A stretch of 64,000 nt of DNA from Obrimoposthia wandeli (lineage: Eukaryota): the NCBI GenBank assembly GCA_977020255.1, contig CDROCS010000473.1:682001-746000 (forward strand). The letters are read 5' to 3'. Numbering within the stretch: the stretch's first letter is position 1; each line of letters starts with the position of its first letter. A model generated the notes under the pieces. It searched no databases, was not told the DNA's origin, and worked only from the letters and a program-made list of their open reading frames with translations. Both the position numbers and the translations under genes were made by a program. Positions 963 to 62,930 of the stretch are shown here, piece by piece.

Positions 963-3100
963 TTAAGTTAAATTAAAATGACCGTAAGCAAGTCTTTTAT
1001 TCTTACTAACCCATCTCCTTTTATCGTCAAAACATTTTAAAGCAACTTTAGAGGTAAATGTTGTATGAAGCTGATGGTTAACCGATGCTATATGTGACTG
1101 GTTAACACTAATAATTTCTTCATTTTCATAACAATTGAGGTAGTATTGATGTATTAAGTTTGTTTGTTTTAAAGAAATACCCTTAACCCTTAATTTATTT
1201 TGAAGTGAATAACATTTTGGTTTTAAGAAAACCCATTCATTATAATCAGTACCCTCACTTTCATCTTTAAATTTTCCAATTACAGCTTTAAAGTTTTCTG
1301 AATACAAGGAATGTGTTTTAGGATAATTACTCGTATCTAAATACCCATCCTTAATCATTTCTTTGAGTAATTTATCCTTATTAATATTCACACATTCAAG
1401 GAAAAAAGAATCTGTGTCTATAGCTACAATTCTAATACTACAATTAAAATTTGCCTATACCCTTCAAGCTCAACATATTGTAATTGATACATTCGTAATT
1501 TAGATATATCAAGTACAGCTTGACCGATATATGAAGGCCGATCTAAACATATTTCCTGTTTCTGCATAAAAACTAAATTTAAATCATAATTCATTTGAGT
1601 ATGACGTTTAAACCAAGGACTTGAAACTAATTTTTTAAACCGTTTATCATTATTACATAATCTAATATCAAGTCGCCTCTTAAGAATATCAACCGTTTTA
1701 TCGTAAACTGAATTAATTTTTAATTTGTAAAAATCATATTCAAACTTATTAACATTAGTTGCCCGCTTGTTTGAATTAAAATCTAGATGTTGTTTTAAAA
1801 AAGGTGCTTGTCTAAACTGAATAGCCTTATGAATCTTTAAGATTTCAGCACCAAGAAAAACATAGAATTGTAGTAAACGGAAATGTATTACATAATGTTC
1901 TTTATCATTATGGGTTAAAAGTAATTTGGGAGTTTTTGAGTTTGGTGGACACATCTTATGTGGTCCAATAGGTAAGTCATCAACTTTATCATGTATACGA
2001 TCCGGAATATATAAATCTACTTCAACAAGAAAACCCCATACGGTTTTACTTAAATCCTTTTTACTTCCAACTAAATTCAAAATATAATCAAAATTATCAT
2101 GCACCCATTTAAATCCCATATATGGTAAAGGTTGACTTAAAGCCCATCCGTATAAGTTATTCATATCTATATAGATAAGTTATGTATTATTATCGGACTT
2201 ACAATAATGTTTATTAACAAAAGTCATACCTCCTCTAATACCTGCTTCACAAAGATTAAACATTTCCGGATCATGTAGCAATTCTACTTTATGAGACCGG
2301 TAATACTAAAGAAATTAAGAGCCTCAAGATTATCATCCGATCTATCTTTCTGTCTAAAAGCCTCAAATACATCACAAAGTAAGTATATATCAAGACGCAT
2401 ATATTCCATCATATAGTCTTTAATATTAGTGCAAGCTAGTTTTGTCCACATTGTATGAGCTAAATTATATTTATCATCTGTAACACAATCAGGAAATTCA
2501 CATTTTGGAAGTAATTTATCTTAATACAACTTAGATTCACTGGAAATATATTCATAGGGAAAATCACCTTTACTAGATATCAAATCAGTACTAAAATGTC
2601 TTGATGTCTACGGTGAACTTGGAAGATAACTAACCAATCTTTCAAGAATAGTTGTTGTAAAAAGATATGAATCTAAAAATTTCAATGTTCCAGTTGAGAA
2701 TTCTATTTTGAGAGCCATAAATTTTTCCCTAAATTTGGGTATGATTGAAAAACTTTTCCCTTTAATTTTGCAAATTTTAAAATATGATGAATATCATAAC
2801 CCATTAAGTTGTGATAATGTACAGGTAATATAGGTCTATTACCGAACCTACGAGATAAATTACATTTATTACATGCTGCACCCAAGAATACACCTGAAAT
2901 ATGATCATGATCACGTACTAATTTTCTAGTGATTTTATAACAAAGGTAACATATGCGACTCTCTCGAAAAGCTACCGATTTTCATTTGTCATTACTAGTG
3001 GTGTATGCATATTATTTCTCCAAAAAGGTGCAACAATTTCATTAAGAATTTCCGTTAATTTATCAATAAAGTTGGTAGCACAATCTAAACCAAAATATGA
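963..3100 (-). pseudogene. Protein-primed family B DNA polymerase (Polinton type), disrupted
   Basis: ORFs 963-1391, 1424-2164 and 2703-2885 carry RDHDH, GAACNKCNL, HNLMGYD, NNLYGWALSQPLP, KLKINSVY, YIGQAVLDISK, GKFKDE, KPKCYS and FDDKR motifs in the expected order, with stops and frameshifts between them. Confidence 0.92.
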
Positions 3101-3571
3101 AAAGTATTCTATTGTGTCAGTAACATTATTTTTCAATAACATTCCATCTGCAATGGGAGTATGTTTAAGTGAATTAATAGTGAATAAAGTTGTAGTATCA
3201 GTATTAACAATTCTAAAAATACTGTATGATCATCTTAAATTACATAAAACAAACAAATAAAAAATAAATTCGACTTTTTAACGATTTATTTTATAAAAGT
3301 ATATATATAAAGATTATAAATTGTTAAAACATTTATAAATTACATGTTTTACAATCGTTTACAAAGTAGTTTTATAAAAATAATGATAAACCTTTTAAAA
3401 AATATTAATTCAAAATTTAAAAATTCTAAAAATACTGTATGATCATACTAAATTACATAAATAAAAGGAATAAAATTCAATATTTTCATCCAATAATAAA
3501 TGAGCATGTGTGCATAAAATTTAGTATATAAGCAAACACTTTTTTATTTCAATCCCCAACTATTTGAAATA

Positions 3572-4653
3572 ATGACTATGGTAAGAAACTTTATTTTTTA
3601 TTTCTTTATTAATATTTATTTTTTAGATTTCGTGTAACCTGTTTCCAGCCTATTGTGGTGCTTCGACTCCGCATGGAGATAATGTCCGCCTACTATCGGA
3701 CAAAGTCTCATGGGCGAGTATTCTTCGTCTGCCCCTTCTGCAGAACTATGGAAGAGAAGGTGTTTCGAGACTTCTTCGGTGAACATCGAGATCACCTATC
3801 GTGTTTCACGACCAACAACAAGAAGATGGCTATCGTGCAATTGGTGCGCGATTCGCAGGTCGCTCCAGCTCCTGCCTCTGTTCCAGTTGCAGTCTTTCAA
3901 CCCATTTACGGTCCTGTGATTGGTCCTTCTCTCTTGTTTCCTGATTCTGCAGCTGCCTCATATACTCAAATGAATAACAATGAGTGGTTGAATGACATCT
4001 TCCAAGAGGATTTTGAGGAGTTGGCACCAGCAACCTAATTCTCGAACAATTACTGGATGGAAAATATCACCCAGTCAGATTTCGAGATGGAGCAGGTTCA
4101 GTGGAGCGACAGCGGCTGGTTGGAGACCATCTAGGAATCCGATTTCATCTAGTTAACAGACGACAGCTGGATGAATTCCGTCAATGAAGAGGACTTTCAA
4201 CCAGCTACAGTGGGATTGCCATTATTAGATGTTTTTATTACTATTTTCTGACTATTTTTTAAAATGGTAATTATATATATATATATTCCCCCCCCAGGAA
4301 ATACCTTGATACAGTCGTCATCCGCTACGACATCTATGCCTCCCATCGCGAGTGCATACGTCGATGTTTGCACGCCTTAGAGGTAATAATTTTTAAAAAT
4401 ATATTTATGTTTTAATATATTTATTTCAGCAGATTCATCATCCGCGTCCACAACAGTATTTTCAATGATATTAGCTAGTGATGATCGAGTGGCTCCTGCT
4501 TCTACAAGCGCTATCGCCTCAGCATCTGAAGCACCACCATTAGTTGCCTCAGCAGCACTTACTACAGCATCACCTTCCACATCAGCTGCGAGGTTTGTCA
4601 GGGGGAGGTTTGTCAGCAACTGTAAGAAGAATGAGACGAGACCAATTTTTTAA
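3572..4653 (+). pseudogene. Spliced zinc-finger gene with acidic Trp repeats and Ser/Ala/Thr tail, upstream of pPolB (decayed)
   Basis: ATGACTATG then GTAAGA...TTTTAG intron (3581-3626). C-x2-C-x14-H-x2-H motif (CPFC...HRDH). Four W-x-x-x-[IV]-x-x-x-DF repeats at 3985-4200 read through in-frame stops. Further GT-AG AT-rich segments near 4268-4298 and 4383-4428. Homologous to 35332-35798. Confidence 0.6.
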
Positions 4654-4699
4654 TAAGGTCCCACCAAAAAACTTAGGGAAAACAGTGCTACTATAGAGT

Positions 4700-6483
4700 A
4701 TCACTTAAATAATAAATATGTTATAGTTAAGGTGCCATTAGGAAATTAAATTTTATTAAACGTAGGTGTAGATTAAAATATTGAAAGTCTTTTAAAATCA
4801 GAAGTTACTAAATTAGGACAGGCTACGGTTCAATTTTTCATAACAGTGCAGTTTAAAAATTTCAATGAGGAAACTAAAACTTGGGTAATTTCACATAAAG
4901 CAACTGTTTTCTATGATAATTTTGTAACTGAAATTGGAAGAAACCTAGATGAAAAAATTGTTAATTATAGCGAGTTAAGTAGTGGATGGACTCTAGTTAG
5001 AATTCACGATGTTAGCTTTGTTCTAACAAAGTTCACTGACATGATATATCTTTCGTGGAGTTCATACATTCCTTCACCTAAATCTCTTCAACTTTCACGT
5101 TCCATTGTTAACGTACAAAACAGTGGCAACCTTTGCTTTCTGTATAGCGTGTTGGCAATCCGTAAAGGGGATGTAAATTCTTAGCACAGAGAACGTGTCA
5201 GTAAATATATCCCTTTTATAAATGAATTGCAGTATCATTGAATAGATTTTTCTGTTAAATTAACTGCGATATCAAAATTTGAACACCTTAATAACTTGAG
5301 TATTAATGTATTCAAATATAATACTAATATCCCAGTTAATGTAACATATGAAGAAATTTTTAAAATCCTTTTGTAGATGTAATTTAAAGGAGCAAAAATG
5401 AGGGGACTCTGGTCAACTTAATTTTGCTCGAACATAATAAAAAACTCCACTATGCTGCAATTCCTAATTTAGATAAGCTTCGGCAGGACTATTATTCTTA
5501 GGCCCCAATATTACACAGTATCATAATTTTCCTATCCAAATTGTATTTTAGATTTTATGTTAAAATTAGAAGAATTAGGAACTACAATTGTCAAACCGTG
5601 GTATGATCTTAATGCTCATCAAGCAATGATCATGACAGGCATAGACTGGGTTAATTTTAATTCTTGTAGGATTATGTTATTTGTGTGGTATCCAGTCTAA
5701 GTTAGTAGGAGATCACGATCATGTTACGGGCGATACTTGTGAGCGGCGTGCAACCTCTGTAATCTTGGCCATCGTCTCCCTAAAAAAACACGCATTCCCA
5801 TCGTGTTTCATAATCTCAAAGGATATGATTTGCATCATATACTTAAATACGTGTTGGGTACATTAAGCTCCTGGGAAATTTCATGTATACCTCAAACTTC
5901 AGATAAATACTTATCTTTAACTGCATATACTGAATTATGCAGTTTAATATTTATAGATTCACTGCAGTTTTTGAGCGGGTCTTTAAAAAATTTAACGGCA
6001 TCTTTAAATGCATGGCCAATTACACAGAAGGCGTTCCCAGCTTCGGTTAATGATAAGGAGATTTTTCCGTATAAATTTGCAAAAACCTTTGCGGATTTAG
6101 AAAATTCTACAGAAATCCCACCCATAACTGAATTTGATGGTGTAAATCTTCAAGACTATAATGAGGCTCGTACATTTTGAGAGAATAATTGTCGAAATCT
6201 TCTTGAATATATGCTTTATTAAATGAAGTTAGACATTTATCTTTTAGCTGAAGTTTTTGAGTCCTTTCGTGTAAAATCTTTAGCAGATGATGAGCTAGAT
6301 ACCATGCATTTCTTTAGTTTACCTGGTCTTTCATGGGCAACAGCAATAAAAACTCTAAAAATCAATATCGAGTTACTGCAAGATCCCGCGATGTATCAAA
6401 TGTATGATTATGGTATACGCGGTAAAATGACTTTTGTCAACAAACATCATGTTGTCAAAAATCAATCCACGGAGATTCTGTAA
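4700..6483 (+). pseudogene. pPolB N-terminal two-thirds (family A), disrupted and truncated
   Basis: SSGW, SSYIPSP, VNVQNSGNLCFLYSVLA, DHDH, HNLKGYD, FIDSLQFL, FPYKF, DIYLLAEVFESFR, GIRGKMTFVNKH; close homolog of 25009-27410. Confidence 0.9.
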
Positions 6484-7140
6484 CATACATACTTTGTGAT
6501 CCAGACACCGTATCAACATCCACTGTTGACAATGACAATTTTATAAACCACCTGCTAAATTGAGAAAAAAAGTTACATATCATTCTATAATTACAGCAGT
6601 CAAGCTATCAAAAAAAGCAAAGCTCTTCTTCAACAAACAAACAAAGTTTGCCAACAGATGGTTACTTATGGTATCAACCTACTGACGCCTATATAAGCTG
6701 GAGTTCTTAAGGCAATCCATTGAGAAGGAGAGAAAGTGACAGCTACCATGAAACATGCACTGCTAGAAGAGGAATGAGCCTTACATTTCGATTTTAAGAA
6801 GAATGGAAATATAGATATTCAAGTTGTGATTTAGAAAAATAAAAATAGTGAATTCAAGCTAGATATCCTTGGATTGAAAGACGGCAGTAATTATTTTGGA
6901 GGGTTTGAGATACGTACCAACACATCGTGCTTGATTTGCTTTTGAAGCATATAATGGATGGAATATTGGGAGGCAAAATAACAGCATATAATATCAGCTA
7001 CGCTTTTATAAATCAGTTAGTAGAAAATTATGTTATTCTAAAATCAAAGTTTGAGCAGAGCAGCGTCAAGATCAAGATTGCAAATATAAAATGGAGAGAT
7101 GCTTGAGAGGAACTTGTACATTATTACCAGTATTACAAGA
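6484..7140 (+). mobile_element. Degenerate DNA-transposase-like fragment replacing the Polinton centre
   Basis: Interrupted reading (AGVLKAI...EGEKV...EEE.ALHFDFKKNG..DIQVV) resembles LHxDGK-type invertebrate transposases; no intact ORF or TIR seen. Confidence 0.3.
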
Positions 7141-9780: not shown

Positions 9781-10014
9781 TTATGAACGTGTCGCATCTA
9801 TAATACTACTGATAATTGAAGCAACAACTGGAAAAACAGTCCCTATGAAACCACCATTCTGTTTAAGAATAATATTTCGTTTCCTTTTTTTTATTTTTAC
9901 ATTAGCAATATCTAGAAGAGTTTTTCTATATTTCTTTAATATATTTTTCCGATTTCCAACTTTTACTCGACCCAAAACTATATTATACAAGGGTATGCTT
10001 TGTATTTTCTTCAT
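9781..10014 (-). CDS. Small basic pX-like virion protein
   Basis: Basic N-region followed by KQNGGFIGTVFPVVASII, resembling the adenoviral pX pattern (GG then hydrophobic tail); syntenic with INT. Confidence 0.65.
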   Translation of the reverse strand: MKKIQSIPLYNIVLGRVKVGNRKNILKKYRKTLLDIANVKIKKRKRNIILKQNGGFIGTVFPVVASIISSIIDATRS

Positions 10015-11317
10015 TTTAAAAAAAGTTCAATAAACTAATTTATTCTTTTTTAGATTTAACATATATCCACATATATCCAGAATTTGATATAATGCTCATA
10101 TAAATACAATTTTGTGATGCCATCAGTTTCAGAAATACAATTTCTTGCATTTATTCATTTGTTTTTTTAAAGAAAAATATTCTTTCACATGAAAATATCC
10201 CTTTATTCCATTATCTGGAACTCTATAAACATTTTCTTAATGAAATCTAACCTTGGTCGTTTAAGAACTTAATTAAAATTTGAAGCCCTCCATTTTTACA
10301 GCATTAAGAAACTACTTTTTAAACATCACTACTCTATTTTCACTAACTAGAACATTCATTATTTTTGATGTTTCCAGTAAATTAATTATTTATTTTTGCT
10401 TCATATACTTTATACATTTGTATTTACGTTCACACATTCTTAAAATTTTTCTTAATTATTTGGTGCATTAAGAAATTTTCTGGTTTAGTGTTTTTAATTA
10501 ATTTTGATATCAAATTTGGTTATTTTTTTTCCTGATGTATCTTCATAATTTTCAAAATTTCTTTGTATTTTAGAGATTTATTTTGAAACTTTATTTATTC
10601 TTTTAATAAAAGTTTATTATTAATAGAATCATTATTAAAATAACGTTATAAATTGTTACTTAGATTTCATAATCAATATCATTATAAAGAATTTTAATTC
10701 CCAAATATATTAATTTCAGCAAATAATGAATATAAACATAAATTAAGCGTAAGAGTTTTAGAAGATAAGTAAAATTTTATTCTTTTTCAAATATCTTTAA
10801 TTTCAAACGACCAGGATATCATTTTGAAACGTTTAATATAAAAATATAATTATGGAGATCTGATACAAACTGTAGAAATGACCAGTTAAACAGGAATATC
10901 TTAAAGTATAATGACTTAATAATATTTTTGGAATAGTGGTTTTCACAGCATATCTAGAGAGGCAGTTTAAAATATCATATATTGAAAAAATAAATTTTAA
11001 ATTCTTTTCTTGAAAATTTCACTAGTTTATTAAATAAAAAAATATTAAATATTTTTATGAGAAACACATAATTTCTGATTTTATCAATAAAATATCGGTG
11101 ATGTGTTCATATTTAGTTTTTGTATTATTTTCGTTTGAAACCAGAACTTAAACTTATATTTTACTAATAATTTTTCAGTTTTAAAATCATAATTCTGACG
11201 AAACAAAAAATATTAAATTATAAATTGACTCTGATAAATATTAAAATGGTTTCTTTTAAAATTAAGCCATATTTATTGAATAAGGACTAGAGTAGAAAAC
11301 AAATTAATGTGGGTAAA

Positions 11318-11957: not shown

Positions 11958-17413
<5,456 letters not shown>

Positions 17414-18541: not shown

Positions 18542-18660
18542 AGTAGGTGGATGTGTCCGGTCTAATCCACATCCCCCTCCCACCCTCTGTCCTTTAAAAC
18601 TGTGCATGTGTGTGGAGTGAAATTTCGTGCATGTGTGTCGAGTGAAATTTCATGTATGTC
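18542..18660 (+). repeat. Polinton left terminus with fold-back and 25-bp subterminal repeats
   Basis: agtaggtggatgtgt is shared with 44371 and imperfectly with the reverse complement ending at 37996. ggatgtg...cacatcc hairpin. tgcatgtgtgt.gagtgaaatttc repeats recur at about 57722. Confidence 0.65.
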
Positions 18661-20201: not shown

Positions 20202-20698
20202 ATGAAACTTGTAAATATAAATTATAAAGCTAGAACAGAAGATGATGTTTCGTACTTACCATTCAATGAATGGAAGCCGAGACAATATGTGGAAAAGTTT
20301 GACAATTTTATAGTTGTTATTTTTCCTACAGTTAGTTTTTTTTATTTTCATATTGAATTCTTTTAGGAAATTGTCGTGTTATGGGATGCAAAATACCAAT
20401 ACTTGGGTTCAATTTACCATTTGGAATTCGAATCACTGCAATACAATCAATCACGATTTCGGCTAATCTTGGGAAACAGATAAATCTTTTAAAAACTGCA
20501 GAGAAAATGAAAGAAGAATGCATGTTTGAACCAGAAATTTTTCCTGCTCTCAGTTATTTGAAGTTTAAACCGCTATGTGTAAATATATTTTCCAGTGGTA
20601 AAGTTATGATATTGGGATTAAAAAATTTTGATTATCCAGACATTGTTGATTTGATTTTAGAAAATATATCTTATTACACCTTGTTATCTTTTCTATAA
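20202..20698 (+). CDS. Compact TATA-binding-protein-like gene, one mini-intron at about 20331-20366
   Basis: Exon 2 encodes INLLKTAEKMKEECMFEPEIFPALSYLKFKPLCVNIFSSGKVMILGLK, matching TBP repeat 2 (YEPELFPGLIYR...LLIFVSGKIVLTGAK). Exon 1 encodes MKLVNINYKA...KPRQY...VVIFPT, continuing as NCRVMGCK, matching repeat 1. The GTTAGT donor is one base out of frame. Confidence 0.75.
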
Positions 20699-21032: not shown

Positions 21033-21210
21033 TATGCAATGGAGCTAAATAATAATGCTGTATAATAATGCTGTGGAAGTGAAAGACACATTTCGTATGT
21101 AAATTGTTGCAAAATGAATCTCTTTTCAATTCTAGTTTCAAAAATATTTATTGGCATCATGGTGGAGGAGGGGAAAGCGGGTTAACCAAAACAGAAGTTT
21201 GCGTACTTTA
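21033..21210 (+). pseudogene. Packaging ATPase N-terminal remnant, joined by deletion to integrase
   Basis: Matches 59362-59473 (IIGPIESGKTHF Walker A) and 62931-63000; homology switches to integrase after cagaagtttgc. Confidence 0.7.
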
Positions 21211-21735
21211 AGAGATCGAATAAAAAAGTATTTCACAAAAGAAGGAAATAAAAAATGGATCCTAGTTTTACCTAAAATAATACATGCATATAATCACTCG
21301 GAACATAGAGGTCTCAAGGGAATGAGACCTGTTGATGTTACTAATAAAAATTTTATGGATATTTGGGTGAACAGGAATAAAAAAGAAAACATTAAAAAAG
21401 CTAAATATAAGAAAAACGAATATGTCCGAATTTCGAAAATTAGCTCTACTCCATTTATTAAAAACTTTGATCAGAATTGGAGCGATGAAATATTTTTTAT
21501 AAGTAAAATTGATCAAAAGAGTAATCCAATAATGTATACTATTAAAGATGCTGACAATAATATCGTTCACGGTAAATTTTACGAGCAAGAACTACAAGTA
21601 ATATCAAATAAACCTAGCGTTTTCCGTATTCAAAAAATATTAAAATCTAAGGGTGCCGGTAAACATAAGCAATACTATGTTAAATGGGATGGTTATTCAG
21701 ATCCAACTTGGATATCAGCATCTAATATAATATGA
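21211..21735 (+). pseudogene. Integrase C-terminal half with chromo-like domain
   Basis: RTLRDRIKKYFT, AYNHSEHRGL, QNWSDEIF, GKFYEQELQ, YYVKWDGYSDPTW. Confidence 0.88.
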
Positions 21736-22781: not shown

Positions 22782-23130
22782 AGCTTATAGTCAAAGCCAA
22801 CAAGGTGGAGAATTACCATATTTTGTTGGTAAACAATATGGATTTGGCTGGCTTAGAACATTAGGTAGATTTGCCTTTCCTCTTTTAAAGAGACTCGGGC
22901 GATTTATATCAAAATTAGGAAAGGATTACCTTCATCTAAGGACAATAAACTAATACCAACTTTTAAGAAGCATGCGCTTGATGAACTTGATAATGTTTTA
23001 CACGAAGTTGCTAATTTGATAAAAAAACGTAAATCAAATAAAAGCCAAGGAGGTACTGGATTTAAAAGTAAAAAGAAGCAAAAAATCAATATAAACAAAC
23101 GTAAGAAAGTTGAAGGAACAATATTTGCAA
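22759..23130 (+). pseudogene. Basic core-like protein, frameshifted
   Basis: MANPAIIEAYSQSQQGGELPYFVGKQYGFGWLRTLGRFAFPLLK followed by a Lys-rich tail. Confidence 0.7.
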
Positions 23131-23131
23131 A

Positions 23132-24360
23132 ATGAGTTGCGCCAAAACTGAATTGTGTATTTTTGATAAACCACTTCCACAAGTAATTGTAGATAATGCT
23201 TCCTTTGAAGAAATATTTCTAGTTAACTCAGTTTCAGGAACCACTTTAACCGATTTAGAATTTAATATTAATGGTTCCAATAGCGAGTATTTAGATTTGA
23301 ATGATACTTTGCTTTATGTACAAATAAAAGTATTAAATCGGGATGGTACTAATTTAGATGAAAATGCAGATGTAACACCTGTAAATTATCTCTTTAATTA
23401 TTTATTTAGTGATGCCATTGTTACTCTTAATAATGTCAAAATTGAAGGTGGAAATTCTTCCTATGCTCATAAAGCTTTGATTGAAAGTCTTTTGAATTAT
23501 AGTACTGATACTCAAAATACCAATTTGGCAACCATTGGTTATGATAAAACGGTCGCAACTCGCAAAGAATGGATTGCAGGTTCTAAAGCTTACGAAATGT
23601 GTGGGACTTTGAGATTGAATTTCTTTGAACAACCGAAATATTTAATTCCCGGTGTTAATGTACATCTTCGTTTGAAACGTAATAAATGGATTTTTCTTTG
23701 ATAAGCACAGACGTTCTGAAACCCAGACTTGAAATTTTGGATGCAAAATTGTATGTTCGAAGAGTTAAAACCGAACAATCAGTTTTAATGGCACATAATA
23801 TAGGAATGGAAAAAAACAATGCTTGTTATCCTATTAGAGAAACTAAACTTATATCCTATTCTTTAGGTACGGGTACACAAGCTTTTAATAAGGATCAAAC
23901 TTTTGGTGATGTAAGATTACCGAAATTCGTTTTAATTTCTTTTCAAAAAACTGCAAAGTATCTAGGAAATTATACGACAGATGCAACTCAATTTGACAAT
24001 CTTAATGTAGGTTCAGTGACACTTTCACGAAATACTGATTATCGCGAAACATATAAAACAGATTTCAAAGGTAACGCTTATGCTTTGGCTTATACGCAAT
24101 CTATTATTCGAAATTTGGGCCAACTAGATAAAAATATAAACAATGGTATTTCTTTCACTGAGTTTAAAAGCAGCTGCCCGTTCTTCACATTTGTTTTGGC
24201 ACCAGACTTTGATATAAACCAATGCCAACTACCAAAGAATGAAAATTTACTACTAGAAATTAAGTTCAATGCAGCTTTATCACATCATACTTCGGTGCTT
24301 ATTTACGGAGTGTTTGATTCTGAAATACAAATCAATAAAAACAGAACTGTCATATTATAG
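23132..24360 (+). pseudogene. Major capsid protein (double jelly-roll, Polinton type), one frameshift near 23690
   Basis: Overlapping ORFs 23132-23701 and 23686-24360; FFEQPKYLIPGVNVHLRLKR, LEILDAKLYVRRVK, NLLLEIKF motifs. Confidence 0.9.
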
Positions 24361-25008: not shown

Positions 25009-27410
25009 TTAAATTCGGAAGTGTCCATAAGCCAGGCTAGCGTTCTTTTCTACCAAAAAGCGCTTGTCGTCATTACTACTCAAAGCGATGTTGGTTGATT
25101 TATGGGAATACAGTTGATGGGCTCTTGAAATAAATCTAGTTTGCTCAACGCTTTCAATACACCCAGTATCATAAACTTTCATGTATGCCTCATGTGTAAG
25201 ATTGTTTCTTCCCACAGCCTTTGCTCTCATTGAACATGTATTATTATATGTATGTAAACTGTAGCATTTAGGGCGTAGGAAAATACAATCATCATACGTA
25301 ACCTGTCCCTCGCTTTCATCCTTCAATTTCCCGATAATATTCTTTAAACTCATAGAATGTAGAGGATGATTAGCGGGATATTTATGGGTATCTAATAAGT
25401 TGTCCCTAAACATTGCCGGTAATAATTGATTATCTAAACTAACATTCCTACATTCTAAAAAGAAAGAGTCAGTGTCTCCAGCTGCGATTTTGATCTCACA
25501 ATTGAATTCTCGTCGATATTTCTCTAATTCTACGTATTTAAGCTCGTACATTCTGAGTTTAGAAATGTCTAAAACCGTTTGACCTATATAACTCGGTCAA
25601 TTGAGACAAATACTCTGTTTTCCTAATAACACAGCTACCAAGTAATCTGCAATTGTTGATGCATCTGCTGAAAATAATATATTAAATAATTTCTTTACCT
25701 TTGAATTAGGTGGACATTGATGAACAGGCGCTACTGGAAGATCATCTAATTTATCATGTACATTGGAAGGGATTGTTAAGTCAACCTCAACCAAATAGCC
25801 GACGTCTGATGAAACTGTATCAACAGTAGCCAAATCTGTCATCAACTTATTCAACTCTTCCTCATCATAAACCCACTTAAAGTTGGCATGATGTAGAGGT
25901 TGAGTAAGCGCCCACCTATACAAATTATTTATGTCGATGTACAGAATCTCCGTGGATTGATTTTTGACAACATGATGTTTGTTGACAAAAGTCATTCCAC
26001 CGCGTATACCATAATCATACATTGATACATCGTGGGATCTTGCAGTAACTCGATATTATTTTTAAGAGTTTTTATTGCTGTTGCCCATGAAAGACCAAGT
26101 AAACTAAATAAATGCATGGGATCTAGCCCATCTTCTGCTAAAGACTTTACACGAAAGGACTCAAAAACATCAGCTAAAAGATAAATGTTTAACGTCATAT
26201 AATAAAGCATATATTCAAGAAGATTTCGACAATTATTCACCCAAAATGTACGGGCCTCATTATATTCTTGAAGACTTACACTTTCAAATTCAGTTATGGG
26301 TGGGATTTCTGTAATATTTTTTAAATCTGCAAAGGTTTTTGCAAATTTATACGGAAAAATCCCCTTATCATTAACTGAAGCTGGGAACACTGACTGTGTG
26401 ATTGGCCATGCATTTAGAGATGCCGTTAAAATTTTTAAAGACCCGCTCAAAAACTGCAGAGAATCTATGAATCTTAAACTGCAGAATTCAGTATATGCAG
26501 TTAAAGATAAATATTTCTCTGAAGTCTGAGGTATACAAGAAATTTCCCAAGAGCTTAATGTACTCAACGCATATTTAAGTATATGATGCAAATCATATCC
26601 TTTGAGGTTATGAAACACGATCGGAATTCGTGGTTTTTTAGGGAGACGACGGCCAAGGTTACAAAGGTTGCACGCCGCTCCCAAGTATCGCCCCGTAACA
26701 TGATCGTGATCTCTGACTAACTTAGACTGGGTTCCACACAAATAACATAATCTACAAGAAATAAAATTAAGCCAGTCTATGCCTGTTATGATCATTGCTT
26801 GATGGGCATTGAGATCATACCACGGTTTGACAATTGTTGTTGCTAATTCTTCTAATTTTAACATAAAATCTAAAATACAATTTGGAACGGAAAATTTATG
26901 ATACTGTGTAATATTGAGGCCTAAGAATTGTAGTCCTGCCGAAGCCGGTAGGTGAATACTCTCATACTGGTCGTGCAATGCTAAAATTGACTCAAAATCT
27001 GCATACACCCTGAATTCCACGGGTATGCATTTTGCCCAATCCCTGAGTTTTAAATCCTTATCCTTAGGCATGCTGTATAGCGTATTGTCATCAGGATTCA
27101 GTGAACATAATGTCAGATGTTTGCTGTAAGAGAGCTCGGATCGGAATCCATGCAAACATCTATGACACCACTTACACCTTATCCTAACCGGTAAGGCTCC
27201 ATTATCTAAATTTAGAAGACGATCTAAATTAGGAATTGGAGCATAATGGAATTTTTTATTATGTTCATGCAAAATTAAGTTGACCTGAGTCCCCTCATTT
27301 TTGCTCCTATAAATAACATCTATAAAAGGATTTTTAAAAATTTCTTCATCTGTTACATTAACTGGGATATCAGTATTGTATTTGTTATTATTATTATTAT
27401 TATCAAACAT
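25009..27410 (-). pseudogene. pPolB (family A), 5'-truncated with frameshifts and deletion
   Basis: ORFs 25992-27410, 25597-26022 and 25009-25551: YADFESIL, RDHDH, HNLKGYD, FIDSLQFL, GIRGG, DINNLY, GDTDS, GKLKDE, RPKCYS, DDKR. Confidence 0.93.
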
Positions 27411-28503: not shown

Positions 28504-28881
28504 TCATGTTTTTAATTTAGGGAAGCCGGTTTGTTTAGTGTATAACTTTGAATCAAGATATGCGCTAGGATTATTTTGAATTGCACCTAATGCTTTATGT
28601 ATTCCTACAAACATATCAAGTATACCATTCCCCTTTTGTACACCTGCAATATAATCCATATTATTTTTCAATTTTATAGAACTAGTATTAACCCCACCAA
28701 ACCATCTACTTAAAATATTATCTATCATAAATTGAATACCTTTACCCTTCATTTTCTTTTTACCCATTCTAGTCTTTTTAGTCTTTATTGATTTAGTAGT
28801 AGTAACATTTTCACTCATTTTCTTATAAAGTATTAAAGTATTATTATTGTTTATAAAGGAGAAGAAAACAAAGATAGACAT
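28504..28881 (-). CDS. Basic protein with adenain-type sites (possible virion protein precursor)
   Basis: Lys-rich N-terminus; MKGKG and QKGNGIL motifs. Confidence 0.5.
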   Translation of the reverse strand: MSIFVFFSFINNNNTLILYKKMSENVTTTKSIKTKKTRMGKKKMKGKGIQFMIDNILSRWFGGVNTSSIKLKNNMDYIAGVQKGNGILDMFVGIHKALGAIQNNPSAYLDSKLYTKQTGFPKLKT

Positions 28882-28889
28882 ATAAAAAT

Positions 28890-29297
28890 TTATTCATAAA
28901 CTCTAAATGCTTCAATTATTTTCCATATAGGTATTATCAATCCAGAGGGCCCGATCTTGTATCCTTGAATTCTGATTTCGAGAATCCATTCTAATCTAGG
29001 AGGAGGTCCATCGAATATTGTTCCATTCTCCTGCTTGAAAGTGGCATTTTGTCCCTTGATTATGAATTTGTTTTCCTGAAGCTCATATTTGATTCCGAAT
29101 TGTATGAAGATAATATTGATTCTCTCTTTATCCACTGAAGTCAAATTTGATACCTGCAAATCAAATCTATTCGGCTCTATGTTGATAGGAAAAATAAAAT
29201 TATAGTTGTGACATTTCTTCAAAAAGTGCATATCATATCCATGGTTTTTGTGCATAGACTGATATAGCTTTTCCAAATTCGGATTCTCGAAATTCAT
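28890..29297 (-). CDS. Polinton accessory protein, IRLxGY..PxW family member C
   Basis: Intact 135-aa ORF; WILEIRIQGY...PIWKI aligns by eye with members A and B. Confidence 0.7.
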   Translation of the reverse strand: MNFENPNLEKLYQSMHKNHGYDMHFLKKCHNYNFIFPINIEPNRFDLQVSNLTSVDKERINIIFIQFGIKYELQENKFIIKGQNATFKQENGTIFDGPPPRLEWILEIRIQGYKIGPSGLIIPIWKIIEAFRVYE

Positions 29298-29883: not shown

Positions 29884-30183
29884 TGTTACTAAAAATAGAT
29901 TTCTCCTTGTTTTCTGAATTATAAACAATACTCTTATAGCTTTAAATTTGTCAATAAAATGGAGAAACTCGATGAAGCAGCAGCGGAGAAAAATTGAAGA
30001 AATTTTTGAAGATGCTGATAAAGAAGAAAATAGCGATTGGATTTCTTAAATGCTCTGACTTTTATAGAACCCATAATAGCTAATGCTTCCAGTATGGAAA
30101 TGTCTAATATGATCCACCTTTTTGATAGTTTGTTTAGAACTAGATTTAACCAACTTAGTGTGGAAAGATTAAACTAAACCCCG

Positions 30184-30600
30184 ATGAGTGAGATTTTAGT
30201 AAATCAATTATATATTGGAAATTATCGCGATGGGTTTGATGAAATTGAGCTTCTAAAATCGAAATCCACACATGTAATAAATACATCTCCAGTGGATAAG
30301 ATATCTTATAAGGAATTAATGTATACATCGATCTTTGTAAATACGAAATTAGGAGAAACAATATTACAATATTATAAACAGACTAATAATATAATTAAAG
30401 AAACCATCAAAAATAGAGGGAAAGTTTTAGTATGTGGTCATTATGGAGGTTTACATGCTGTTTGTATTGTTATTGCATTTTTATCTCTTTCAATGGGTGT
30501 TAGCTCTGCATGGAATTTTGTTAAAGCTAAACGTAGTATTGCAACGCTTAATGCAACTTTGCTTAATCAAATACGTATTTTTAATCATTATCATACATAA
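30184..30600 (+). CDS. Dual-specificity phosphatase-fold protein with degenerate active site
   Basis: SEILVNQLYIGN, THVIN, GKVLV, IVIAFL, FVKAKR and LNATLLNQI follow the DUSP pattern; HCxxGxxRS is replaced by CGHYGGLHA. Confidence 0.8.
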   Translation: MSEILVNQLYIGNYRDGFDEIELLKSKSTHVINTSPVDKISYKELMYTSIFVNTKLGETILQYYKQTNNIIKETIKNRGKVLVCGHYGGLHAVCIVIAFLSLSMGVSSAWNFVKAKRSIATLNATLLNQIRIFNHYHT

Positions 30601-35075: not shown

Positions 35076-35331
35076 TTAAATAAAACAAAAAAAATGTCTG
35101 TTTATTTTATTGATTTTGAAGCTTTCTTTGGATTATTTAAACTACTTACCATAGAAAATAAATATTAAAGAAAAATATGCTACTTACAAGTAAAATCAGC
35201 ATTTTCTATTAAAATTTACTGATTGGATTGAGAGTTTTGAATCAATCTCATTGGATAAGTACTACTTTGTAAATAGTATATAATGAAACAGGATTCATTC
35301 AATAACTAACCTTTTATAAATGATATCGAGA

Positions 35332-35798
35332 ATGGTAAGAATTTTGATTTATTTTTGATTATTTTTTAGAACTGTAACATAAACAAGCAACTGCGCTATG
35401 AAGTAAGGCATGTTGATTGCCTAAGAAGAATGGAGGAGTATTTCAAAAAGAAATTCAACGAACATACATATTATATATGTTCAAAATGTCAAACGAGCGA
35501 GGAAATAGACTGGAACAGCTTCTGCGACAGACATCGAAAACATTTGGCGCACTTCCAGAATATTGGGAAAATGGCGATTTTCAAGAAATGCCCACAAAGC
35601 AGTATGTATTTTTATGGACAATCTACTGGAGCTCCTTCTATCGACTCAACATCAACTGCTGCTGCTCCATTAGCTGCTTGTATGCCTGTGGCGGTGTCTA
35701 CACCATTAGGTAGCGCCGTAGGTGGTTCTGGCCCACATAAGCTAAATTTAGCGGGATGTCTACATCCGCTGGTGTTAGGAAGCGTAATATGCCGCTAG
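35332..35798 (+). CDS. Spliced zinc-finger gene upstream of pPolB (intron 35335-35369)
   Basis: ATG, then GTAAGA...TTTTAG, then exon 2 in frame with CSKC-x14-HRKH and KMAI; Ser/Thr/Ala-rich tail. Confidence 0.65.
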
Positions 35799-37619
35799 TT
35801 GGAGGAGCCCTAGTGAAGCAGGGTAGGATGAGGAATGTGGTTAAGAAGTGGGGGTTGAATGGAGTTTATTGCTCGATTTCATTATATGTTAAAAATAAGA
35901 ATTTGGTTAATATCATAGTACTGCAGGATCTTCTGGATGCCTTAAGAGACGTTGTAGATCAGTTCGAAAGCTGTAAAATTCAGTTTGGGCTACGGTACAG
36001 TTCTCGAATGGGACTGATACTAAGCAATGGGTTGTTTCCAATAAAGCAATCCCTTTTTCTCCATCGTTTCTTAAAGATGGATCCTCGTTACTGGCTTCGA
36101 AACTCAAAGAGTATTCAGAGCATGGTAGTAACTGGTCTGTGGATCAGTTACTAGAAATTTACTTCACGGTTACCAAGACTAGTAAAATTAATTACCTGCA
36201 AGGGCATTCATATATTCCTTCTCCAGAAGGTATTGTTAATGCGGTAATTAATGTCAGAAATATAGGGAATAATTTATGTTCATATTTAGTATTTTAGCTT
36301 TTTTGAAACGTAATTTATTCCCTAGAAATAGGTATAGGCCTTTAGGATATGAGCCGTTCTTGAGCGAACTTAATTACGACGAAAGCGATATGCCATGAAA
36401 TTAGCTAAAATTCCGCGATTTGAGAGGGAAAACTCGGAACTGTCCATCAATGTTTTCACCTATAATCATATAGGGAATTTGCCGCTTGGAACGGAAATTT
36501 ATAAAAATCCGTATATTGACGTGATTTACCGCAGTAAGAATTCTAGTGGCCAGCTCATAAATTTAATTCTTTTGGAGGATAATGTTAGGTTTCATTATGT
36601 CGCAGTTCCTGACTTGAATAGGCTTTTAAATATTCGTCGGAGATTTTCAGCCATTATTCAATGTAAGTGGTGCTATAAGTGTTTGCACGGTTTTAGGCAC
36701 ACCGAATCATTCGATAAACACGTACCACTATGCACCGAGAATATAGAGAATACCACGCTATATACCATGCCTGAGGAGAAACATATAGAGTTTACGGATT
36801 TTTCCAAAACTATTTCTCCTCCATATGTCATATATGCTGATTTCGAGGCGATGCTTACCCGGCATGGGATTCGCCATCAGCAGCATCTCCCAATAGCAGC
36901 GGGTATGCTGTTATCATCAATTAAGTCTGCTCCAATGCAAGATTACTCCTTTTTAACGGGGGAAAAATGTGTAGTGGATTTTCTGAAGAATATCAAGACA
37001 ATCGCAAAGGAGACTGTACTTCCGTGGTATAATCAGCATTCACAAACAGTTATGCAGCAGCTAACACTGGTGCAGCTAGCTAGTTACAATGCTGCAACTA
37101 CTTGTTATCTCTGCAAGAAACGTTGCGTTAGTAAGGTTAGGGATTACGATCATATAAGGCTTATATTATAAGCGGTGAATTCTTATGAGCTGCCCACTCT
37201 AGGTGTAATTTATCCCGCCGGATAAGTCATCTTTTCCTAGTTGTTTTCCATAACCTGAGAGGCATGCCTTGAGCAAATTCCCGCACTGGTCCATTGGTAT
37301 CATTCCCCAAACTATCGAGAAGTTCCAGGCAATGATTGTACGCTTCGACGTGATTACCATCAAATTCATCGATTCGCTACAGTTCCTGAATATCAGCCCC
37401 GACCAGCTAGTGAAGAATTTTGCAGATGTTCTTATTACGAAGACAGTGTTCCCGGCTCATCTCATAGGAGGAAAAGGGATATTTCCCTATGACATGGCAA
37501 TATCAGAGACTGCTCTCAGAAACATTAGCAGTCTACCACCTAAATGTAAATTAGAAATCACAGACGCCTATTTTCTTAAAAAAACATTTTTGAAATTTAA
37601 AGTTTTTTTAAATTTTTAG
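35756..37619 (+). pseudogene. pPolB (family B), N-terminal half, disrupted and truncated
   Basis: SGWS-like segment, YIPSP, LSINVF, CYKCLHGF, YADFEAML, RDYDH, FIDSLQFL, KGIFPY. Confidence 0.88.
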
Positions 37620-38029: not shown

Positions 38030-41000
38030 ATCGAATAGAATGTTAGGCTTCTTGCAAAACCTCTTTCCATGAAGATGGGGTTAGGTTTCGGCTGTGTAGA
38101 GTTAATGATATAGTTTTCCAGATTGTCCCATTTAGTGGCTCTAATTGACTATTTCCTGATGGATGATATGGTGTTGTTCGGGTTTGGGCGACGTTAAGTT
38201 TCGTTAAGAATTCCCTGACCTCTTGACTCTTAAATTGGGTACCTCGATCGATGTGAATTGACGAAGGACACCCAAACGTAGAGAAGAGGTAGCACGTTTT
38301 TACTGTGTGTGCTTCCATGATTTTGCAGGGGTAAGCAAACGGGAATCTTGAATATTCGTCTATCATCACTAGAAGGTATCGGTAAGGGCCGGATTGCGGT
38401 AGCGATCCTTTGAAGTCTATACTCAATTTTTCAAAGGGTCACGTCGATTTTATTAGCCGTGACATCTTGGGTCGTTAGTATTGGGGTTTGAGTATTGCGC
38501 ATGTTTTGCAATTTTCACAAACGTCTCTGACTTCCTTTATAGAGAATGGGAGGTTTTTGCTTCTGATGAAATGCCAGAGCTTCGTAATTCCTGGGTGGCC
38601 CAACGCTAGATGGATTTCAAGGACCGTTTTAGATTTGATCACGTTGCATCTGGACATTGCGTATGCAGCTAGATTGAGTTCGCCTGGGATGTGTGTTACG
38701 TCGTAGGAATATAAGGACAACTCAATTCTCCATCGAATAATTTTGTCATTTTTACTTTTTCCATTTATCTTTTGATTGAAGATAAACGAGAGCGCCTTTT
38801 GGTCAGTTTTGATTGAAAAGTGGTTCGTGATCAATATTGATCTCCATTTTCGCACACTTTTGACGATCGCCATTTCTTCTTTCTCGATTGAAGATAATCT
38901 TTCTTCGTTCGAGTTCAGGGTTCTGGAGAAGAATGCAATAGGTTTATCTTCTTACAGCATTACTCCTTATAAGGCGGTTTTTGAAGCGTCCGTTTGAATT
39001 TCAATCGGGATATTGCATTTGATTGGATATAGTGTAGATGATAAGATTTCCTTTTTCAATTGAGAGAATGCTGTTTTTGCTGACAGGGGCAGTGGAAATG
39101 TTGCTTTCAGAAGAGGTTGGATTTTGTATGAAAATGATGGTATCCATTTGGCGTAATAGCTCAGGAGTCTACGTAGTCTCTGTAATTCCTTTGTATTGGT
39201 TGGTATTGGGTAATCAGTAATTGATTTTAACCTTTCTGCATCAGGGCACATTGAATTCTCTTCGATTTGATATCCAAGAAAATGTATGGACGTTTTTCGA
39301 AATAAGCATTTATCCATGTTGAGCGAGATTTGGACTTTTTTAAACACTTCAAGGAATTTATTGACGTTTTTGTCATGATCTTCTAGAGATGGCCCGACGA
39401 TAATTATGTCATCTAGATAAGCGTAGGTGTCTTTGAGATTGTTATCGTCGATGATGTTGTTCATAGTCCGTTGGAAATCGCTGACGGCATTAGTAACTCC
39501 AAATGGTAGGTGTCTGAACTGATATAAGTTACCGGAGGCTTGGAAAGCCCTGAATTTTTTTGTTGTCTGGGTGCAGAGGTACCTGGTGGTAGGCTGATCG
39601 CCGGTCCAGTTTTCTAAAGTATTTATTTTTGATGTTTCTCGCACTAGTTTGTCCTTGTTAGGTAATGGGTACGCGTCTTAAATCATGAATTTGTTGATCA
39701 TCTGTGGATAATCGATTACTAGACGCATTTTCACGTTCCTGTTTCTGACACCCTTTAATAATTTTTCAACTTCGAGTTTTATGAAGTTCAGGTTCTAGCA
39801 GTAGGTTCTTGATTTGGTCGCGATGGGAAATACATCGTCTCTCATGTTCTCGAAGATTCGTGGCGGTTCAATGTGCATTGGTAGGACGGATGCTAGTGTC
39901 AGCGGTTGAATCTCTCCGTCAAATTTGAAGGTTATTGATTTATGTTTTTTCATAAAGTCTTGGCCAAGGATTACTGAAGTACATAGGTTATCCAGTACGT
40001 TCAATCGTTGATTTCTATACAGCACATTGTTTAGTTCAAAATCCATGAAACAGAGGTTGTTTAATTGATGCCAGAGATATTGGCATATTTTGACCTGATA
40101 ATTTGAAGTACTTTACTAAGTTTCTGTCGATGAAACTGAGTTCGCTTCCACTGTCGATTAGTGCATCGTGATACCTGTCGAGGATCTTTATTTATCCTAT
40201 TGCTTTTCGGAGTCCTGTAGGGGATTTAATGGCTGCATTTGCTAAATGTGTCGCTGCGTTGATTGTATCTTTCTTTCTCGGCAGACAGACGCTGGATAAG
40301 TGTCCAGTTTTCATGCATTTGTTGCATGTTGCATTTTTTGTTGGACATAGATTTCTTACATGATATTCTTTTCTCCAGAAGTAACATTTCCTCGTTTTTG
40401 GACTGCTGCTGCCGTAAAAAATTCTGATATTTTTTCTGATTGCGGGAAGTTAAGGACCGCGTCTAAATGTGTTGATCTTCTAACATAAGTGTCTGAGTTC
40501 TCCATAGCAGCTTCCAGAGATTGAGCTTGGGAGATTGCTTGAGTTATACTCAGTTCTTCGTTTTCTAGAAGTCTTTGCCGAGTTGACTGCAGTTTAATTC
40601 CTGACACGAAGGCGACTCGGATATACTCGTCTCGGTGTACTTCTGTCGTGATAGTTTTGAAGTTGCAGTTTGTGGCTAGAACTTGTAGATAAGTCGCAAA
40701 GCCTTCAACGTTTTCTTCTGCTTTCTGGGACCTGTGCATATGCTGATATCTAGAGAATATCTCATTCTTTTTTGCAATGAGGCTTCGGTCCAGGATATCG
40801 ATAGCTTCGTAGTATGACTTTGCATTTACGATTCTTGAGTAAATGTTTGAAGATACGTTACTGATGAGGAGAATAAGTTTTTCTTCGTCCGTCGCTTTGG
40901 TCCGGTTTGTAGTTAGGTCGAAGATCCGTTTTCAATATTTATACTCGGTCTCGGATTTACCTTCCTGTTTTGGAAAAGTAAAGAGTTTCACCATCGATGA
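38030..41000 (-). mobile_element. Ty3/gypsy LTR retrotransposon remnant (gag, PR, RT, RH, INT)
   Basis: Gag CNKCMKTGHLSSVC knuckle, ALIDSGSE protease, PFG and YLDD RT motifs, IQTDASK and TDQKAL RNase H, HLALGHPG...CENC and IDFKG/DRGTQF integrase in gypsy order. Confidence 0.92.
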
Positions 41001-61790: not shown

Positions 61791-61861
61791 ATAATTAGGC
61801 AAGGAAAATGAAAATTGAGAAAATTTGGCAATCTGACATTTTTTCAAGATTAACTATTTTT

Positions 61862-62870
61862 TCACCCCCACCTTTTTAATTTAAAAAATATTTTCACACA
61901 CTCCACCTTTTTAAGATAAAAAATATTTTCCCATCCCCCACCTTTTCAAGCAAAAAAATATTTTCACACCCCCACCTTTTCAAGCAAAAAAATATTTTCA
62001 GACCCCCCATCTTTACAAACAAAAAAATATATTTCAAACCCCCACACCTTTTCAAGCAAAAAATATTTTCAAACCCCCCCACCTTTTCAAGATAAAATAT
62101 TTTTTCACACACCCCCACCTGATCAGGGCCTAAATAATTTTTAACACCCCCCCACCTTTTCAAGATAAAAAATATTTACCCACTCCCCACCTTTTCAAGC
62201 AAAAAAATATTTTCAGACCCCCCACCTTTTCAAGATAAAAAATATTTTCAGACCCCCCATCTTTACAAACAAAAAAATATATTTCAAACCCCCCCACCTT
62301 TTCAAGCAAAAAAATATTTTCAGACCCCCCCACCTTTTCAAGATAAAATATTTTTTCACACACCCCCACCTTTTCAAGATAAAATATTTTTTCACACAAC
62401 CCCACCTGTTCAAGCCTAAATACTTTATAGCACCCCCCACCTTTTTAAGTCTAAATAAATTTTAGCACCCCCCACCTTTTTAAGTCTAAATATTTTCCCA
62501 CCCCCCTACTTTCAAGCAAAAAAATATTTTCAGACCCCCCACCTTTTCAAGCAAAAAAATATTTTCCTACCCCCCCACCTTTTCAAGCTTAAAAATAATT
62601 TTACACCCCCTACATTTTCAAGATAAAATACTTTTTCACACACCCTCACCTGTTCAAGCCTTAATACTTTTTAGCACCCCCACCTTTTTAAGTCTAAATA
62701 CTTTTTCACACCCCCCACTTTTTCAAGCAAAAAACATTTTTACACACCCCTACCTTTTCAAGCTAAAAAATATTTTTCCACACCCCCCCCCTTTTTAAGC
62801 CAAAATACTTTTTCATAACCAACCACTTTTTCAAACCAAAATATTTTTTCACCCCCCCCCACCTTTTCAA
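61862..62870. repeat. C-rich minisatellite, unit about 32-33 bp, roughly 30 copies
   Basis: Consensus cccccaccttttcaag(c/at)aaaaaatattttca(c/g)a with variant units. Confidence 0.93.
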
Positions 62871-62930
62871 GCAAACATATATTGTGCACCAGTACTAATT
62901 CAATCGCTCCGCATCAAAAAAAAGCTACTT

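Follow-up and report, generated by a model that had tools for sequence, protein, structure and literature searches.

The closest described systems to the locus analyzed here come from Polintons, adintoviruses, and adenoviruses. In the polinton protein-primed polymerase (pPolB), as laid out by Krupovic et al. 2024 (PMC11071308), the terminal-protein domain (TP, or D1) is the first domain and is followed by vOTU, exonuclease, and palm regions; the main text of that paper contains no occurrence of 'zinc' or 'intron', and the nematode Polinton paper contains none of 'zinc' or 'TBP'. Vertebrate Mavericks were reported to be intronless (PMC8097293). In adenovirus, the adenovirus protease (AVP) trims the pre-terminal protein in steps, from pTP to iTP to TP (PMC4246237). 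Starrett et al. placed Oncoid genes upstream of PolB and mention TBP-like genes of MELD viruses in their figure legends (PMC8502044), and the CR3 region of E1A possibly contacts TBP (PMC6409611). Our literature searches, which covered openly accessible main texts, listed no description of a zinc-finger or spliced leader on a Polinton pPolB. Our data indicate with high confidence, from layout and frame continuity at the DNA level, that a candidate zinc-finger gene is the N-terminal leader of a Polinton pPolB; its predicted splicing through three short introns is very likely.

The locus lies in a 64-kb window (the whole stretch of DNA that was analyzed) containing several decayed Polinton copies, where a rearrangement point lies on one side of it (about 3466) and a polymerase fragment on the other (4691-6497). 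Adjoining the leader on the minus strand is a third, divergent polymerase fragment (963-3229), which does not belong to the same element in sibling copies. An earlier note had described a zinc motif followed by four in-frame Trp repeats and three stops. We found these features where it had placed them: C-x2-C-x14-H-x2-H occupies 3730-3795 (plus strand), four Trp/acidic repeats share its frame, and stops at 4036, 4132, and 4150 interrupt that frame. A search of the 1.35-Gb genome assembly returned at least 40 leader loci including that of the window, the others at 80-88% identity. Our copy set (n = 44) consists of the window copy, 39 others, and four from TBP-anchored loci; since these copies are related to one another, the counts below are not independent. 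The repeats keep a spacing of 183 nt in 41 of the 44 copies. The note's reading of the three stops as decay agrees with the other copies, because the repeat block is free of stops in 27 of the 41 copies scored. In reads of four runs, which behave as DNA from one sample, the three stop-forming bases of the window differ from about 98-99% of the depth. These reads span the introns, and among the joints listed none falls at a predicted splice junction, which for DNA reads does not bear on splicing. The window copy is a decayed, dead fragment and shows no indication of a function for the host.

Comparison of the copies yields a spliced gene model on the plus strand. A TATA-like box lies at 3525-3531, 47 nt upstream of the start codon; 35 of 40 copies carry such a box 25-70 nt ahead of the ATG, against a background of 0.87 per kb. 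The same heptamer is found at 3525, about 20164, and about 35277, which is 38-47 nt before both leader starts and the TBP-like gene. Exon 1 (3572-3580) comprises three codons and starts the polymerase precursor; its ATG and its donor GT are each retained in 39 of 44 copies, and the same ATG|GT layout opens a second Polinton family described below. Predicted intron 1 (3581-3626, 46 nt) has GT and AG each present in 39 of 44 copies and lengths of 41-47 nt covering all three phases. Exon 2 (3627-4228) holds the zinc domain, a linker, and the acidic repeats. An alternative acceptor at 3648 was rejected, the modal exon-2 start being in frame from 3627. At about 3670, the window copy and copies L023, L032, and L033 have in common an exon-2 start that is 17 nt short, reflecting either common descent or recurrent deletion between short repeats. 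Predicted intron 2 (4229-4297) retains GT in 37 and AG in 36 of 44 copies, ranges from 55 to 117 nt, and has a degenerate donor in the window copy. Exon 3 (4298-4382) is rich in Ser, Thr, and Pro, is frameshifted in the window copy, and has a pN/pS of 0.75, indicating weak constraint; of 37 copies, 25 have an exon 3 of 87 nt and 29 one whose length is divisible by 3. Predicted intron 3 (4383-4429, 47 nt) has GT in 38 of 44 copies and lengths of 31-49 nt. Exon 4 begins at 4430 and in siblings runs on toward the polymerase. Overall, between 36 and 39 of the 44 copies retain the start codon and splice dinucleotides. Intron lengths are spread over all phases, whereas four distances within the exons are divisible by three in 41/43, 29/37, 29/37, and 20/34 copies.

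This model keeps part of the extent proposed earlier, a gene at 3572-4653 with GT-AG segments of 31-46 nt. Short introns are supported (46 nt, the 69-nt span at 4229-4297, and 47 nt), but neither the end at 4653 nor the 31-nt intron is. The 31-nt GT-AG segment at 4267-4297 is not an intron because an in-frame stop precedes it, and the true second donor is at 4229. A one-frame gene at 3572-4653 was rejected in view of the predicted splicing and of siblings that read on into the polymerase. Gene ends at 4653 and at 4038, the latter named in the note as a stop that would speak against its proposal, were rejected as well: sibling copies continue into the polymerase. The window copy ends at 4653 because of a deletion and frameshift near 4590.

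Downstream of intron 3 lies a Ser/Ala/Thr linker of variable length (4430-4600), in which the deletion near 4590 removes the region of a Gly-Gly site and shifts the frame of the window copy; among siblings this tail ranges from 222 to 464 nt. It is followed by a basic stretch (4601-4690), a likely nuclear localization signal by composition, with at least 6 K/R per 24 residues in 33 of 33 copies. The polymerase body (4691-6497) comprises terminal-protein, OTU-like, and HNH plus exonuclease regions and is cut off at about 6497 in the window copy. We assign the TP and vOTU labels on 4691-6497 tentatively, from characteristic motifs and from the polinton pPolB architecture in PMC11071308. Positions 5313-6497 are 92% identical to 25920-27384, and the latter matches PF03175 above cut-off (25995-27410).

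All 20 long loci, and 11 of the 19 short ones, have the polymerase region directly 3' of the leader. Of the 29 copies in which the distance from linker to polymerase was scored (15 were unscorable), 20 keep the frame, across 12 different lengths, and 14 of these 20 copies have no stop. All five linker lengths common to at least two copies are in frame with the polymerase. The junction is out of frame in 9 of 29 copies, and from the basic stretch to the priming loop, an A/T-rich 250 nt, the commonest frame is kept in only 16 of 32 copies. Both departures would be accounted for by decay or by assembly slips within A/T runs.

We found that the zinc motif first reported is the second half of a larger domain (3627-3860, plus strand), as yet unnamed, in which C-C-H-C is followed by C-x2-C-x14-H-x2-H (CxxC at 3730-3741, histidine pair at 3784-3795); the C-C-H-C half is frameshifted near 3670 in the window copy. 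It is likely to bind metal through eight ligands, a number that suggests two zinc ions. Its core has a pairwise pN/pS of 0.39 (21 copies). A profile built from both families retrieved 46 public relatives; among the 10 whose names were checked, one is called "hypothetical" and the rest are without a name. CxxC-x12-15-HxxH is present in 44 of the 46 and the upstream C-C-H-C module in 28, many of the others beginning or stopping inside the domain. The domain is in tandem in 13 of the 46, and classical C2H2 fingers were added in 3 of 26 scanned relatives. Ten of the 46 finish just past the zinc domain, which looks like read-through into an intron, and 10 extend into the terminal-protein region in one ORF. 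A complete cluster member of 1,286 aa (P0048) carries two zinc domains ahead of a polymerase that matches the window polymerase at E values of 2e-55 and 2e-21; the profile search found no PF03175 match in it.

Searches with the zinc domain gave no Pfam match above cut-off and none in PHROGs, no significant match by PDB sequence search, no match in a word-indexed search with the zinc motif, and no relative in the phages and viral and metagenome contigs scanned. In the ESM Atlas there were only RRM leads below 0.9, and P0008 had no usable match. The predicted structure (pLDDT 74, pTM 0.62, first 20 residues poor) contains a helix, three to four short strands, and two helices. Foldseek gave no match at E ≤ 0.001, and PDB, BFVD, and a wide search gave none of significance, from which fold novelty does not follow. 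The best structural match, TAX1BP1 UBZ1+2 (Z 2.5, rmsd 2.7, 53 aligned residues), is not significant.

The zinc domain is followed by a Pro/Ala/Ser linker (3861-3981). Although the linker shows no sequence constraint (pN/pS 1.03), 29 of 37 copies have a distance from CxxC to the first repeat that is divisible by 3. The four acidic Trp/Phe repeats (3982-4197) span 72 codons with 19 D/E, no K/R, 5 W, and 6 F, and include the three stops. A pattern derived from the repeats has 4 matches in the six-frame 64-kb window, all within this block, and none of 20,000 shuffles had two or more, the pattern having been fitted post hoc. The pairwise pN/pS of the block (0.46, 40 copies) compares with 0.43 for the terminal-protein region (25 copies), the pairs not being independent; by this measure the block is under purifying selection. 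The activation-domain composition that the earlier note had pointed to is borne out by the Kotha-Staller acidic-activation-domain rule: of 41 copies, 36 pass its strict form and 40 its relaxed form, while none of 14 control ORFs passes the strict form. The precision of this rule is 0.2-0.7 even among human transcription factors (PMC10550315). Leaders of 47 relatives included 1 strict and 3 relaxed passes. The block is thus activator-like in composition and under selection, but specific to this first family.

The second family also encodes the zinc domain. In one exon at 35320-36150 (plus strand), a zinc domain (BLASTP E 1e-10 against that of the first family) is followed by a short linker, an LxGG site, and the terminal-protein region. 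Eight of the 11 copies scored show the fusion of zinc domain to terminal protein in frame and free of internal introns, and 11 of 12 carry the LxGG site. We did not find the acidic repeats in copies of this family.

In the first family, a Gly-Gly site before the basic stretch is clean and in frame in 23 of 32 siblings; 3 have a stop in it, and in 6 it is shifted or absent. The adenovirus protease consensus, (M/I/L)xGG or xGxG with Gln tolerated at P4, accommodates this site (PMC4246237). The site is probably cut by either an adenain/Ulp1-type protease of the element or the OTU domain of the polymerase itself. The candidate element protease is an 86-aa fragment with matches to Peptidase_C5 (E 0.017, under cut-off), C48 (E 0.1), and ASFV S273R (E 0.43). 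Such cleavage would not be universal, because only 4 of 11 fused relatives carry a Gly-Gly-type site ahead of the terminal protein. In the relative P0031, four tandem Gln-x-Gly-Gly motifs (residues 77-112) separate the zinc domain from the terminal protein. Elsewhere in the window, small basic ORFs at 9781-10026 (minus), 22869-23135 (plus), and 28504-28893 (minus) contain Gln/Met-x-Gly-Gly or x-Gly-x-Gly motifs, making all three likely protease-processed core proteins.

A TBP-like gene of two exons and about 152 aa (20202-20698, plus strand; PF00352, E 2e-12) belongs to another copy of the same element family. It has at least 39 sibling matches, those listed being at 96-97% identity, and its protein has seven unnamed public relatives. 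Nine of 20 TBP-anchored loci show the leader within the DNA covered, and for 9 of the remaining 11 the DNA covered reached no further. In the second family, a TBP-like gene at 46-53% identity is present in 3 of 8 flanks, adjoined by a dual-specificity phosphatase ORF (30178-30600, plus strand; PF00782 above cut-off). Since both families have the TBP-like gene and the second is without repeats, the gene tracks the zinc domain, not the repeats. Thus the TBP-like partner that the earlier note had suggested does occur in the same element family, but its pairing with the repeats is weakened. Acidic activators act on TBP via its basic helix. The first repeat of the TBP-like protein is about ten residues short at that position, and the protein seems to be without the helix.

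A chromodomain above cut-off marks an integrase candidate at 21136-21732, and rve matches a fragment of the second family under cut-off (E 0.008). Candidates for the major and minor jelly-roll capsid proteins and the packaging ATPase gave no profile matches; we assign these labels presumptively, from the look of the sequence and gene order. A 70-nt stretch (18581-18660) recurs in opposite orientation outside both ends of the gene block. An intron-split gene at 12994-17413 (plus strand), which we take to encode a Prp43/DHX15-like DEAH helicase with a long Lys/Glu-rich N-terminus, is probably a host gene, and 38043-40931 (minus strand) presumably holds decayed LTR-retroelement gag-pol pieces. 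At 61841-62890 lies a tandem array whose unit is about 35 nt long.

We hypothesize that one spliced mRNA would encode, in order, the zinc domain, a linker, the acidic repeats, the Ser/Thr/Ala linker, the Gly-Gly site, the basic stretch, the terminal protein, the OTU-like protease, and the polymerase. A cut at the Gly-Gly site would free a leader of about 300-380 aa, as the adenovirus protease trims the pre-terminal protein. The zinc domain would be the conserved unit for binding, and the acidic block would supply an activation domain, specific to the lineage, that might act on the TATA promoters of the element, possibly with the element's TBP-like protein. We lean, by a narrow preference, toward this model as a whole, in which the leader is part of a cleavable, pre-terminal-protein-like precursor and has a regulatory role. 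That it would be a nuclear regulatory module acting in transcription at those promoters is plausible, at somewhat less than an even chance. Selection, composition, the added C2H2 fingers (3 of 26), acidic-hydrophobic tiles in 3 relatives, and a TBP-like gene in both families suggest such a role. The broadest version is speculative and rather unlikely: an intron-bearing Polinton lineage in which an activator with an undescribed two-zinc domain, built into the polymerase/terminal-protein precursor and either released by the viral protease or tethered to the genome ends, would combine with a virus-encoded reduced TBP at TATA promoters into a two-part transcription switch coupled to replication.

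The leader might instead belong to the polymerase but serve replication or protein turnover, through UBZ-like ubiquitin binding together with the OTU domain and through repeats that dock host replication or repair factors. We consider this unlikely, though it draws on the fusion of the leader to primer and polymerase, on TAX1BP1 UBZ1+2 being the best (non-significant) structural match, and on sub-threshold zf_UBZ matches in two relatives; furthermore, acidic-aromatic motifs also bind replication and repair factors. However, the calibration of the tool itself places a Z of 2.5 in the background. UBZ domains are recognized by their histidine spacing and by an Asp between the histidines, whereas the histidines here are spaced by two residues and no conserved Asp lies between them. 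The added C2H2 fingers and the TBP-like gene also point toward transcription.

A free protein of zinc domain and acidic repeats, made as an additional product through retention of intron 2, is a similarly doubtful prospect. Intron 2 lies just past the last repeat, and in 39 of 42 copies its retention would halt translation 4-48 codons on, but this support is weak because most AT-rich introns contain early stops. It is still less probable that the leader stays on the terminal protein until at least virion maturation, so that an activation-like block tethered to both genome ends would act in cis or anchor the genome in the nucleus. Adenovirus terminal-protein precursors do prime replication and are cut late (PMC4246237), and 7 of 11 fused relatives are without a Gly-Gly-type site, but both families here keep theirs. 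Finally, the separate E1A-like (Oncoid-type) transactivator gene that the earlier note had envisaged is very improbable and unsupported because the leader is the N-terminus of pPolB: Oncoid genes do lie upstream of PolB (PMC8502044), yet no conserved stop separates leader from polymerase, the relatives are single-ORF fusions, and the LxCxE, CR1, and Cys4 motifs are absent.

Predicted splicing, a zinc domain that is widespread but has no name, and a protease-type site together suggest that Polintons have a precursor step like that of adenoviruses. The leader is also a concrete candidate regulator of Polinton gene expression. Furthermore, ORFs annotated upstream of PolB may be polymerase exons, and some leaders could have been read as separate ORFs in draft annotations.

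Set against adintovirus Oncoids and adenovirus E1A, the leader is alike in lying upstream of the PolB core and in joining a zinc motif to acidic disordered sequence. Unlike them, it is not a separate ORF and has no LxCxE, CR1, or Cys4 finger: among the 44 copies, one has the LxCxE Rb-binding motif and none has CR1, and among the 46 relatives, none has LxCxE, one has CR1, and none has the E1A-type Cys4 finger (paired CxxC), 44 of them having CxxC-x12-15-HxxH instead. The acidic block resembles the VP16 H1/CITED2 class of acidic activation domains (PMC10550315) in net charge (-8 to -12) and in aromatic and Leu content (7-9 W/F/Y/L per 39 residues), a likeness of composition and not a shown homology. 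As in the adenovirus pre-terminal protein (PMC4246237), an extension precedes the priming domain with a Gly-Gly-type site between them, and the element carries a candidate for a related protease. However, pTP is a separate protein, whereas here the polymerase is fused and the extension consists of a zinc domain and acidic repeats; the likeness is one of layout and not of shown sequence similarity. In the helicase-pPolB fusion of an Oxyrrhis polinton-like virus (PMC12721341), pPolB likewise gains extra domains (about 1,500 aa), although these are an SF1 helicase there and a zinc/acidic leader here. The closest agreement is with the pPolB of Polintons and adintoviruses (PMC11071308), with the same order of the body 3' of the leader and with presumptive integrase-, protease-, and capsid-like neighbors; the difference from the polinton pPolB of that account is that TP here comes after a leader, predicted to be spliced, of roughly 300 aa or longer.
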